In this document: positions 222 through 3,522 of the stretch, in pieces
Layout: each line of letters starts with the position of its first letter
How positions within the stretch are numbered: position 1 is the stretch's first letter
Virus record (IMG/VR): IMGVR_UViG_2541047816_000005
Location: 1 to 47,623 of that record
From: a virus
Taxonomy: Duplodnaviria; Heunggongvirae; Uroviricota; Caudoviricetes
Length of the DNA stretch: 47,623 nt
Direction: 5' to 3' (one strand)
Notes under the pieces: generated by a model
What the model was told of the DNA's origin: nothing
Databases searched by the model: none
Seen by the model: only the letters and a program-made list of their open reading frames with translations
Translations under genes and position numbers: made by a program

Positions 222-290
222 ATGGCGCTTTACACAATTGGTGAAGTGGCGTTGCTTTGTGATATTAACCCTGTCACGTTACGCGCGTGA
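222..290 (+). pseudogene. mlrA: 5' fragment of MerR-family regulator (MlrA/YehV-like), 22 codons then TGA; likely prophage junction
   Basis: ATG at 222 preceded by AGGGTGAGA; translation MALYTIGEVALLCDINPVTLRA then stop at 288-290; matches the N-terminal HTH of MlrA as recalled, and similarity ends abruptly. Confidence 0.45.
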
Positions 291-483
291 CGCAACATTT
301 TTAAAAATCGACGAAGATCGTCCAGGAGCGCCATTTTTCAAGGGTTGGACAGATGATTCGTTTTCGATGTCGACGAACTTCGACGGATTTCGCCGATAAA
401 AAGTGTCCCATACATGCCCCATAGATGCCCCATAGGCAATATTACCAATTGACACTGGTTATCCACACAGCCAAAAATAACAC

Positions 484-499
484 CTGTACATAACTACAG
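484..499 (+). promoter_or_regulatory. putative LexA (SOS) box CTGT-N8-ACAG upstream of dinI-like gene
   Basis: cCTGTacataactACAGtt read directly; AGGAGGG RBS at 504-510 and ATG at 515. Confidence 0.55.
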
Positions 500-514
500 T
501 TACAGGAGGGGGTT

Positions 515-763
515 ATGCGTGTTGAGATCTGTATCGCTAAAGAAAAAATCAGCAAAATGCCGAAAGGTTCTGTTCCTGCTCTGCAGCAAGAAATGCTGCG
601 CCGCATAGGTAAGCGATATGACGATGCAGATGTGATCGTTAAATCTGCCAGCAATGATGGACTCACCATTTTAAGAGCCGTCGATAAAGAATCAGCACTG
701 GAGTTCGTACAGGAAACACTACAGGAAGTCTGGCAAACCGCGGACGACTGGTTTATGCAATAA
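515..763 (+). CDS. DinI-family DNA-damage-inducible protein
   Basis: 82 aa; [10 protein letters not shown]...[12 protein letters not shown] resembles DinI along its length (recalled); strong RBS; LexA box upstream. Confidence 0.75.
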
Positions 764-880
764 CGGGATCATAATCACTGTAATGACCTGTTTTGTATGA
801 CATTCTTAAAAGGCATAACAACGAGCTTGTCGTTTCAAGCGACTTCTTCTGGTTGGGGAGCCTGAGTGCTCCCCTTTTTT

Positions 881-1177
881 TCAGCTAAAAATCAGCATAC
901 AGCCATACAATCCCGCACAGGCCACCACCGGCACCACAAAATCCATCAGACTGGCCACATTCCACACACGCGGATCAAAACCGCCCCACCACGGCATGTT
1001 CTGTCTGTGACCATCACCAAAACGCTTAATCCAGCGATATTCTGCCTGGGTATGTTCTCGGGCAATAAAGAACGTACAACCCGCTATCGCTCCGTAAACC
1101 CAGTCACCGGTAATGCACCCGACCAGCCCCTGCACGGCTACTGCACAAATTGCATGAAGTATCGGCGTGATATCCAT
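881..1177 (-). CDS. small hydrophobic membrane protein, unknown function
   Basis: 98 aa ORF with hydrophobic Cys/Gly-rich segments (AVAVQGLVGCITG, VVPVVACAGLYGCMLIF); follows the 92 aa ORF in the same orientation. Confidence 0.4.
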   Translation of the reverse strand: MDITPILHAICAVAVQGLVGCITGDWVYGAIAGCTFFIAREHTQAEYRWIKRFGDGHRQNMPWWGGFDPRVWNVASLMDFVVPVVACAGLYGCMLIFS

Positions 1178-1186
1178 CTGCTCCCC

Positions 1187-1465
1187 TTAAAACCACTCCC
1201 TGAGCGGGCGCTCTGGTGTAACCACCCACTCACGGAACACGGATTCATCAAAGCCATCGTCAAGAAGACGAATATTAACAAAGTACCCTTCGTCTCGCGT
1301 GTATTCAGGCTCCCCGTCAGCAGAAACACCTGACTCACTGAACGTAAAACCAATCTCATCAACCAGAATGGCATTCTGCAGCTCTTCGTCCTCTTCCCAG
1401 TTAAGTTTCCTGAGAAATGCCCTGAAATCTGCTTTATCACTGAAACGCAACGTGAAATCTCTCAC
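1187..1465 (-). CDS. small acidic protein, unknown function (sits where a tail fiber assembly gene is expected)
   Basis: 92 aa, very D/E-rich; start overlaps the tail fiber stop (1462-1465); not recognisably Tfa-like. Confidence 0.4.
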   Translation of the reverse strand: MRDFTLRFSDKADFRAFLRKLNWEEDEELQNAILVDEIGFTFSESGVSADGEPEYTRDEGYFVNIRLLDDGFDESVFREWVVTPERPLREWF

Positions 1466-3522
1466 TCCACAACCTCCCCAAGCTGCGCATCTGTTAGCTC
1501 TTTATGCCAGAGACGAAAATTCCTCACATGCCCAAATAAATGGCGTAATCCTGCTGTAGTTTGTCCACCAATGCGAATGATTGCTGTACTCCGGATATAT
1601 TCCCATGTGGTTTTTGTTTCGCTGGATATACGCCCGTTACTTACTGCACATGTAGACTGATCTGACTTTACACGCATCCCCATAACCATTTTTTTCAACG
1701 ATGCGTTTTCGTTAACACGCCTATTTGATCCACCAATATCGCAATAAGGAAATCCGTCTGGCCCATCTGCCGAAGATCCGAAGCCAAGAATAATAGCCGC
1801 TCCGGTTTGATGACCGCCGGTATCAAAAACACGTGGCGCTGCATTTGGCGTTTTATACCAGTTCTTATGTACCTCACAAAGAACCGTAAAAGGAAGATTA
1901 TAAAGATTATTCTTAATCGGAACTGTAACCATATCGCTTGCGCGCGTCGCCGCCGTCGTTCCTGATATAATAAAAGATGATACACACGAACCATCCTCAA
2001 CCTGAGGGGTGGCCAGATAAATATAGTCACCAGATTCAACGACACCACCTTTTTTTGGTGCGTATTGTATTGCAGAGGTTATGTAAGTTTCTTTACTTGC
2101 TTGAATCGTTGCCTCTACAAAAATCCAGCCCGTAGCTTCATCTTTGCTAACTCGTGCGGTGAGCCTGTCGGCAGCTACACCGGTGATTTCAACCAATAAA
2201 GACCGCGTATTAACAATGGCATATCCAAGATTAGATGAAGCGCTGCCATCGAAGGCTTCAAACCTGATCCTTAACAGGAGTTCCAAATCCGTTTTAAATC
2301 TGCACGATGTCGTCACACACTTATTATCGCCTGATACATCGACAGCCCCCGAGGTTGAAACTACTGCCATATTAAGGGTTGTACTTTGCCCAATTAATGA
2401 TTCATTACAAACAAACTTTCCATAAGTAAAACCAAAACTATCAGTTCCAACCTCAGCGACATTCATATTTGCAGATTTACCCCAAGAAGCTGGAGTTGCT
2501 GAATTCAACATGTAGTTGGTTCGCTGACCTTCAATCAATAAACCTTCTTTTTCAAATCGTGGCTCATTAATTTCCGCCGTTTTCAGTTCGCCAGATTTGT
2601 TGATATATGTTGCCGTTGATGCGCGACTGAAATTAACCTGTTTATCACTGGCAACCTGAACCACATTATCACCAATCTTCACTTTTTTATAACCCGGAGA
2701 ATAGCCCGTAATCATATCCAGCGAATCATTAAAGGGTATCCACACATCCGGCAGCGGCTGTAAAACATATCTGTACGGCTCTGCTGTCTGGTTTGCGTAT
2801 TCTCTGGCAGCATCTTCACTTGCTTTTGCTGCCGTCTGGCTTGCTGCCGATGCTTTCGCCGAGTTCGCCGCCGCTGTTTCGCTCACCTTTGCGTTGGCTT
2901 CACTGTCTTTGGCATTCGTCTCACTGGTTTTCGCTGCCGTCTGGCTGGATTTTGCGTTTTTTTCGCTGGCCTTTGTGGCTGTCTCGCTATTTTTCGCGCT
3001 GGTTTCTGATTTTTTGGCTGCTGTCGCGGAGTTTGCCGATGCAGTCTGCGAGGCCGCTGCCGCCTGTGCGCTGTTAGCTGCATTCGTTTCTGAGGTTTTC
3101 GCCGCATTCTTCGATGAGGCTGCTGCCGTTTCGGATTTCTTTGCCGCCGCTGCACTCTGTGATGACGCTCCGGCATGACGTGCCACTTCATTCACCATCA
3201 GCTCAAAACGGCGCAGTGCCTCCGGACGAACATCATCCTCCGTCATGGCGCCGAGAAAATCATTCAGCGTACCTGGTCTGGAACCTTCATAGACGGTAAT
3301 GGTCCCGGCATGTGAAGGCGGAAAATCTTCAACCAGCAGGGTGACGCTGTACTGGCCATACTCAACATCCATGCTGTAACGCCCGGCTTCATCCGGATTT
3401 TCAGAGGCCACCGTGTTCACCACCACCGTGCTGCTGGTCCGTCTGGCCTTCAGCACAATGGTGCAGTTCTGTACTGGTTTTCCTGTGCCATCTTTAAGCA
3501 CGCCAGAAATTTTTACTGTCAT
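1462..3522 (-). CDS. stf: side tail fiber protein (lambda Stf-like N-terminus, Ala/Ser/Thr/Lys-rich repeat shaft, divergent C-terminus)
   Basis: 686 aa; N-terminus MTVKISGVLKDGTGKPVQNCTI...GRYSMDVEYGQYSV matches lambda Stf as recalled. Confidence 0.85.
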   Translation of the reverse strand: MTVKISGVLKDGTGKPVQNCTIVLKARRTSSTVVVNTVASENPDEAGRYSMDVEYGQYSVTLLVEDFPPSHAGTITVYEGSRPGTLNDFLGAMTEDDVRPEALRRFELMVNEVARHAGASSQSAAAAKKSETAAASSKNAAKTSETNAANSAQAAAASQTASANSATAAKKSETSAKNSETATKASEKNAKSSQTAAKTSETNAKDSEANAKVSETAAANSAKASAASQTAAKASEDAAREYANQTAEPYRYVLQPLPDVWIPFNDSLDMITGYSPGYKKVKIGDNVVQVASDKQVNFSRASTATYINKSGELKTAEINEPRFEKEGLLIEGQRTNYMLNSATPASWGKSANMNVAEVGTDSFGFTYGKFVCNESLIGQSTTLNMAVVSTSGAVDVSGDNKCVTTSCRFKTDLELLLRIRFEAFDGSASSNLGYAIVNTRSLLVEITGVAADRLTARVSKDEATGWIFVEATIQASKETYITSAIQYAPKKGGVVESGDYIYLATPQVEDGSCVSSFIISGTTAATRASDMVTVPIKNNLYNLPFTVLCEVHKNWYKTPNAAPRVFDTGGHQTGAAIILGFGSSADGPDGFPYCDIGGSNRRVNENASLKKMVMGMRVKSDQSTCAVSNGRISSETKTTWEYIRSTAIIRIGGQTTAGLRHLFGHVRNFRLWHKELTDAQLGEVVE

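Follow-up and report, generated by a model that had tools for sequence, protein, structure and literature searches.

The dinI-like gene described here lies close to one end of a stretch of 47,623 bp (referred to below as the window) that carries a lambdoid prophage inserted in mlrA (yehV). Host DNA occupies positions 1-289 and takes in the btsS-mlrA intergenic region together with the initial 22 codons of mlrA. Alignment against the intact mlrA of Escherichia coli K-12, to which identity stops at 289, places the bacterial/prophage junction between 289 and 290, beyond which the sequence follows the left end of VT1-Sakai; the insertion creates a TGA codon at 288-290. The preliminary description of this DNA had placed a DinI-like ORF just inside the junction, and the alignment bears this out, the distance from the junction into the prophage being about 195 bp for the LexA box and 225 bp for the ATG. 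A hairpin (TGTCACG...CGTGACG, 272-292) followed by a T-rich run spans the host/prophage junction and could serve as a terminator for transcripts from the promoter of the truncated mlrA, ahead of the dinI-like promoter. Further in, 14 bp 5' of the dinI-like -35 hexamer, positions 414-435 form an 11-bp perfect tandem repeat (two copies of ATGCCCCATAG); relatives that share the integrase have it too, and its copies are probably arm-type sites for integrase binding adjoining att. The first 1500 positions of the window match E. coli IAI39, and about 35 further complete genomes, at 99.9% identity. Colinearity with IAI39 (NC_011750.1 887600-890400) does not extend over the entire window, because art genes occupy the coordinates at which the integrase end would be expected; relative to the source of the window, a rearrangement has affected either the prophage or the chromosome of that strain.

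To the right of the dinI-like gene the genes are convergent with it and lie on the minus strand: two small genes of unknown function, flanked by the dinI-like terminator and the tail-fibre gene, then the side tail fibre gene, a Lom-like gene and J. [quoted passage not shown] The free-phage genome of mEp460 directly shows the two genes side by side, integration being the event that parts them. In overall layout the prophage resembles a lambdoid phage of the Stx-phage type without stx, with Q, two tRNA genes, STnc100, a porin, an esterase, a helicase/primase replication module, xis and int. The STnc100 match and both tRNA genes lie downstream of the Q antiterminator gene (34171-34563), and no stx gene was seen downstream of Q, where Stx phages carry their toxin genes.

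Features of the dinI-like locus and of the surrounding prophage. Positions are those of the 47,623-bp window; HI, approximate heterology index.
Feature	Position	Strand	Evidence or remarks
5' remnant of host mlrA (yehV), 22 codons, interrupted by the prophage	222-289	+	Alignment with K-12 mlrA and the VT1-Sakai junction; RefSeq pseudo-CDS in IAI39
att core common to host and phage	270-289	.	Equals the 20-bp attachment site annotated in AP000400.1; divergence from K-12 at 290
-35 hexamer TTGACA (consensus), left edge of the conserved cassette	449-454	+	Promoter scan; column identity 0.99
LexA operator 1 (distal, predicted), core CTGGTTATCCACACAG at 455-470, filling the -35/-10 spacer	453-472	.	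Second-best LexA score, approximate HI 11.5
-10 hexamer AAAAAT, 18-nt spacer	473-478	+	Promoter scan; conserved block tAAaAATaA
LexA operator 2 (proximal, predicted), core CTGTACATAACTACAG at 484-499, over the predicted transcription start	482-501	.	Best LexA score, approximate HI 8.0; 'putative SOS box' of AP000400.1
Shine-Dalgarno AGGAGG, 5 nt 5' of the ATG	504-509	+	Direct reading
dinI-like CDS, 82 aa, predicted RecA-filament-binding protein; stop codon 761-763	515-763	+	PF06183, phrog_189, 1GHH/7YWA, dN/dS
3' UTR, lineage-specific, without a credible ORF	764-854	+	ORF scan, Rfam, folding, comparison with relatives
Intrinsic terminator GGGGAGC-CTGAGT-GCTCCCC (855-874) and T7	855-881	+	Terminator scan: 7 pairs, 6 of them G-C
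Small conserved phage gene, phrog_1443, probable membrane protein, weak holin-like match	881-1177	-	Convergent with the dinI-like gene
Small conserved phage gene, phrog_1361	1187-1465	-	Convergent with the dinI-like gene
Side tail fibre	1462-3522	-	
DUF1737-SASA esterase, of a kind found in Stx phages	28642-30603	-	Cargo-like
STnc100 small RNA match	30826-31032	-	158 bits
tRNA Arg(tcg)	31909-31985	-	
tRNA Met(cat)	31995-32070	-	
Truncated N6/N4 DNA methylase	32111-32449	-	Cargo-like
OmpC/NmpC-type porin	32840-33982	+	Cargo-like
Repressor at the CI position	39231-39686	+	HTH 39% identical to H-19B CI; C-terminal part DicA-like (NF007257, E 3.6e-10)
SPFH/Band-7 lipoprotein	42193-43020	+	Cargo-like
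Integrase, last gene of the window	46337-47623		98% identical to the VT1-Sakai integrase

The assignment of the ORF to the DinI family, made from the letters alone in the preliminary description, is upheld by the Pfam and PHROG profiles, by sequence matches in the PDB and by the predicted fold. The protein (RefSeq WP_001261928.1, 'DinI-like family protein') covers the full DinI profile PF06183 from 1 to 63 with an E-value of 6.7e-17 and 62 bits against a cut-off of 24.2, and it matches phrog_189, 'RecA filament binding protein DinI', with an E-value of 6.7e-26, the alignment being confined to positions 71-149 of 151, in the second half of the profile. Sequence comparison with the PDB retrieves 1GHH and 7YWA (E 8e-11). 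An AlphaFold model built with 23 homologues (pLDDT 76, pTM 0.64) presents the elements E-H-H-E-E-H of the DinI alpha/beta fold with its long C-terminal helix, and in a Foldseek search of the PDB only 1GHH (TM 0.73) and 7YWA (TM 0.76-0.80) are significant, the next match being four orders of magnitude weaker. Pairwise dN/dS values against seven relatives are 0.06-0.20, which indicates purifying selection on a real, constrained gene. The chromosomal DinI equivalog model NF007893 of NCBIfam scores the protein at 61.7 bits, below its cut-off of 111, which assigns it to a paralogous DinI-like subfamily and not to the orthologues of chromosomal DinI; the activity of this subfamily on RecA may differ from that of DinI.

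The structure 7YWA shows DinI bound to the RecA filament, and the residues of K-12 DinI which contact RecA have been defined by cryo-EM and mutagenesis (Gao et al., 2023; PMC9926225) as a hydrophobic pocket (L13, L21, W71, W77 and F78) and an acidic patch (E24, E69 and D76). In the order L13, L21, W71, W77, F78, E24, E69 and D76 these align to M15, L23, W73, W79, F80, E26, E71 and D78 of the prophage protein, so that all eight positions are kept, seven by identity and one by a conservative change. Across the 23 relatives M15, L23, E26, W73, W79 and F80 are invariant and D78 is nearly so, while position 71 is E, D or N. Codon 74 (734-736) specifies Q in the window as opposed to the E found in at least 90% of the 23 relatives and in K-12 DinI (E72); this residue lies in the acidic C-terminal helix, beside the residues that contact RecA.

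The gene is preceded by a strong predicted promoter of the sigma-70 type whose two hexamers give 10 of 12 matches to consensus in the promoter scan, and which places the predicted transcription start at about 485-487, within the CTGTACATAACTACAG box. This box had already been proposed as a LexA site, and it is indeed the sole exact CTGT-N8-ACAG of the 47,623-bp window as well as its highest-scoring LexA match; the spacing of 15 nt given for it is correct to the ATG but not to the ribosome-binding site, since the box ends 4 nt before the strong Shine-Dalgarno sequence. LexA control of the dinI-like gene, as also proposed, is favoured by the placing of this operator so as to repress the promoter, by its conservation and by the corresponding annotation in VT1-Sakai; the promoter presents, however, two predicted operators and not one. 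Operator 1, which is absent from the preliminary description and was exposed by comparison with relatives, fills the spacer, while operator 2 starts 6 nt past the -10 hexamer, so that the two flank the -10.

Every 20-mer in the window (47,604 positions) was scored with a heterology-index (HI) matrix derived from 27 LexA operators of E. coli K-12. The resulting scale is approximate, although the matrix ranks recA, sulA, umuDC and polB in the order of the published tables. On this approximate scale the 27 known sites span HI 2.1-11.7, a range that includes both operator 2 (about 8.0) and operator 1 (about 11.5), which are the two best scores of the 47,604 positions; the third best, 13.0, lies elsewhere, and no further LexA site with an HI below 13 was found anywhere in the 47.6-kb window, the region upstream of an ORF6N-domain gene at 42989-43813 included. 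An HI of 8.0 or better was reached in none of 200 dinucleotide-preserving shuffles of the window, and sites with an HI of 11.5 or better arise 0.27 times per shuffled window, two of them within 60 bp in none of the 200 shuffles. The bare 16-mer, on the other hand, proves little alone because CTGT-N8-ACAG is expected 0.6 times per window by chance, and it occurred at least once in 40 of 100 shuffles. Operator 1 is weak in this strain, having a CTGG half-site and an approximate HI close to the upper edge of the known functional sites. Base 472, in the 3' flank of operator 1 just before the -10, is C in the window as against T in IAI39 and most relatives, a difference that shifts the approximate HI of this operator from 9.7 to 11.5.

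Relatives of the protein were gathered from IMG/VR, from GTDB genomes and from phage records. DNA similar to positions 296-880 of the window is found in 582 of 5,426 complete genomes, in up to five places per genome, and relatives of the DinI-like protein are encoded in 133 phage records. The clade of 82-aa proteins, with 61-100% protein identity to that of the window, provides 26 distinct upstream sequences; with L047 set aside, its whole promoter being replaced, 25 remain. In 24 of these both operators are present and rank first and second among the LexA matches, their distances from the ATG being -33 and -61/-62; the exception is L012, with degenerate sites, the proximal one at about 13. 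The distal operator in relatives, at -61/-62, is CTGTTTATCCATACAG with an HI of 4-7, and most relatives present operators stronger than those of the window, for example CACTGTTTATCCATACAGTT and TACTGTATACAAACACAGTA, with an HI of 4-6. In the alignment, the columns 5' of the -35 have a mean identity of 0.63, which rises to 0.99 at the -35 itself; operator 1 stands at 0.92, the -10 region at 0.87 and operator 2 at 0.88. Before the -35 the relatives present at least four unrelated sequence contexts; this, together with the rise in identity at TTGACA, indicates that the conserved unit begins exactly at the promoter. On the right side the match of phage relatives ends at the dinI stop codon.

In the window the intrinsic terminator begins 91 nt past this stop codon, and the transcript is predicted to be monocistronic, with a length of about 395 nt. 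The only ORF downstream of the dinI-like gene is one of 31 aa with a TTG start, which runs through the terminator; none has the size of an antirepressor.

From these features we consider it highly probable that the locus is an autonomous LexA-controlled DinI-like cassette, a moron carried at the att-proximal end of a lambdoid prophage in mlrA, whose product acts on RecA as DinI does. The unit has its own promoter and terminator, lies between att and the convergent tail-fibre cluster, and is found in relatives behind the unrelated upstream sequences described above. As long as the DNA of the lysogen is undamaged, LexA dimers on operator 1 in the spacer and on operator 2 at the transcription start would keep the promoter shut; upon DNA damage, RecA filaments would form, LexA would cleave itself, and the opened promoter would yield the short monocistronic mRNA. 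The DinI-like protein would then bind in the groove of the RecA filament, using the hydrophobic pocket and the acidic patch by which chromosomal DinI binds, and would add to the host DinI pool, which at a low dose would stabilize the filaments and at a high dose would damp coprotease activity, notably on UmuD. The anatomy of the locus, the site statistics, the conservation, the family assignment, the kept RecA contacts and the purifying selection are read from the data, and it is by analogy with characterized systems that we infer LexA binding, damage induction and RecA binding for this gene and its protein. Among such systems, the dinI homologues of the Salmonella Gifsy prophages are under LexA control and are induced 14-23-fold by nalidixic acid, and Gifsy DinI protein accumulates after mitomycin C (PMC3121763, PMC8072944); LexA ChIP has been reported on the chromosomal dinI of Klebsiella (PMC10907235). 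Our literature search returned no experiment or expression data for E. coli prophage DinI-like genes, relatives with more than 60% identity included. The promoter with two operators predicts a lower basal, tighter and possibly later SOS expression than that of chromosomal dinI.

Were the LexA-like sites instead due to chance or decayed, the gene would be constitutive or silent cargo. The expected frequency of the bare 16-mer, the weakness of operator 1 in this strain, the degenerate sites of L012 and the wholly replaced promoter of L047 all lean that way; yet full-length scoring ranks the two sites first in the window and recovers such a pair in no shuffle, both sit on core promoter elements, and both keep their positions in divergent relatives whose upstream DNA is unrelated, which leaves this reading very hard to credit. 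Attention to the 3' UTR is warranted by a precedent from Klebsiella pneumoniae, where the dinI mRNA gives rise to the small RNA DinR, which represses ftsZ (PMC10907235), and one may ask whether a DinR-like RNA is here the main product and the protein secondary. The UTR is long, measuring about 118 nt (764-881) where that of K-12 dinI has about 50 nt, and it ends with a strong terminator and a U7 tail. No Rfam match was obtained over 400-950 at E-values up to 5, however, and none above the gathering score near the locus; the fold of the UTR is no more stable than those of shuffled sequences (z -1.18); and the RNAduplex energy of 764-854 paired to the ftsZ leader of E. coli is -29.1 kcal/mol as against a shuffle mean of -30.6, with 61% of shuffles equal or better. 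On these three results we rejected a small RNA in the 3' UTR. The UTR is, moreover, not conserved beyond its own prophage lineage, unlike the promoter and the CDS, and it is the CDS that is under purifying selection, so that a small RNA as main product is most improbable.

A further question concerns the induction of the prophage itself, since the DinI-like protein had been suggested to tune RecA-dependent induction. This suggestion finds no support in the repressor, which has no S24 domain, or in the Gifsy prophages, where dinI deletions had no effect. Searches of the immunity-region proteins with Pfam and a six-frame scan found neither an S24 self-cleavage domain nor a G-x-S-M motif in the early region, a self-cleaving repressor of that class being rejected on these grounds, and RecA-stimulated cleavage of the repressor is thus probably not the induction route of this prophage. 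The C-terminal 80 aa of the repressor match nothing in any phage record; its neighbours in the immunity region lie at 38892-39137 (-) and 39790-40242 (+). A non-cleavable class of repressor has been discussed by Lemire et al. (2011; PMC3121763), who also found that non-polar deletions of dinI in Gifsy-1 and Gifsy-3 left induction unchanged. A general effect of the gene on the host SOS response is plausible. The early-left operon encodes an ORF6N-domain protein of 274 aa (42989-43813, +) that matches PHROG anti-repressor families (phrog_1726, E 1.6e-69), and no LexA box was found near its gene. Nor did we find a hidden antirepressor ORF of the Gifsy kind downstream of the dinI-like gene.

Taken together, a repressor of non-cleavable type and the lack of another LexA site in the prophage allow the DinI-like unit to be viewed as a coupler of DNA damage to induction. 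In one form of this idea the unit is the SOS sensor of the prophage, its protein or transcript inactivating the repressor directly or indirectly, in the manner of the LexA-controlled Tum of phage 186. Such a role would accord with the repressor's DicA-like C-terminus and missing S24 domain, with the want of an HI below 13 elsewhere in the window and of an antirepressor ORF after the gene, and with the relation between Tum and DinI, the C-terminal half of Tum being DinI-like (PMC3121763); the match to phrog_189 over 71-149 of 151 likewise fits a family which also includes longer, Tum-like proteins. In phage PSP3, however, the antirepressor activity resides in the half that is not DinI-like (PMC3121763), Gifsy-1 and Gifsy-3 lacking dinI showed unaltered induction, and the retention of all RecA-contact residues speaks for RecA as the target. 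Nor does the occurrence of the cassette follow the type of repressor, because it is also present in VT1-Sakai, with its own promoter and SOS box annotated, and H-19B-type Stx1 phages have genes annotated cI. We therefore regard a role for the unit as SOS sensor as quite improbable. Put more broadly, the sole, doubly LexA-locked SOS-responsive output of the prophage may couple damage to induction either via the repressor or through a state of the RecA filament that is read by another phage factor, which likewise seems a distant prospect; if true, a stand-alone DinI-type protein would hold the role held elsewhere by Tum or by GfoA-type antirepressors. The reading that we prefer remains that of a self-contained, LexA-controlled cassette whose product acts on RecA.

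Much of this arrangement is correct but already known, because the annotation of AP000400.1 at that yehV junction includes DinI (H0001) together with a promoter and a 'putative SOS box'; dinI is also annotated at the equivalent position in many phage records, besides being named by RefSeq. The only additions made here are the conserved distal operator, which is without annotation in the records examined, the boundaries of the cassette, and its standing as the sole predicted LexA-controlled unit of a prophage with a repressor of non-cleavable type. Though real, the arrangement is ordinary, and its importance hardly goes beyond sound annotation: LexA-controlled DinI-like genes are common cargo of the lambdoid prophages of E. 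coli. Such genes bring extra copies of a RecA modulator into the SOS network of the host, which could affect mutagenesis, survival under quinolones or cross-talk between co-resident prophages.

The closest known system is VT1-Sakai (Sp15), whose H0001 (AP000400.1) shares with the window prophage the yehV/mlrA site, the 20-bp att, the junction-proximal position, the promoter, the proximal SOS box and a length of 82 aa. The same gene is found in many Stx1 and Stx2 phages and in BP-4795, JLK-2012, mEp460 and the cdtI phage. The upstream DNA is 86-90% identical and the integrase 98% identical to that of VT1-Sakai, whereas the DinI-like protein is only 65% identical to H0001. In VT1-Sakai a second gene, H0002 (YkgJ-like), is assigned to the same promoter, while here a terminator follows after the 91-nt UTR; AP000400.1 annotates one SOS box and leaves the distal operator without annotation. 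With dinI-DinR of K. pneumoniae (PMC10907235) the locus has in common a LexA-controlled mRNA, predicted in our case, with an extended 3' UTR and an intrinsic terminator, but the UTR bears no likeness to DinR in sequence or structure and pairs no better than random with ftsZ. Tum of coliphage 186, also LexA-controlled and with a DinI-like portion (PMC3121763), is a protein of 146 aa with an N-terminal antirepressor half, compared with which the window protein is the DinI-like part alone.

[quoted passage not shown] They differ in the place of dinI, which in Gifsy belongs to the nin region, past the replication genes, and precedes the small antirepressor gene which is the actual trigger of induction (PMC3121763); downstream of the dinI-like gene of the window there is no antirepressor of the gfoA/gftA type and no irsA homologue, the next genes being convergent. 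Gifsy DinI is about 39% identical to the window protein. K-12 DinI (b1061; 1GHH, 7YWA), about 35% identical, belongs to the same family, with the same fold and the same eight RecA contacts, and in both genes an operator lies near the Shine-Dalgarno sequence. K-12 dinI, however, has one operator overlapping the -10, a different promoter and a short 3' UTR, in contrast to the two operators flanking the -10 in the window. Because of the single operator and the different promoter of K-12 dinI, we rejected an origin of the two-operator promoter by inheritance from chromosomal dinI. Gifsy-2 dinI likewise has a single operator overlapping the -10, and the conserved two-operator promoter of the clade described here thus contrasts with the single-operator promoters of both the chromosomal and the Gifsy dinI genes.
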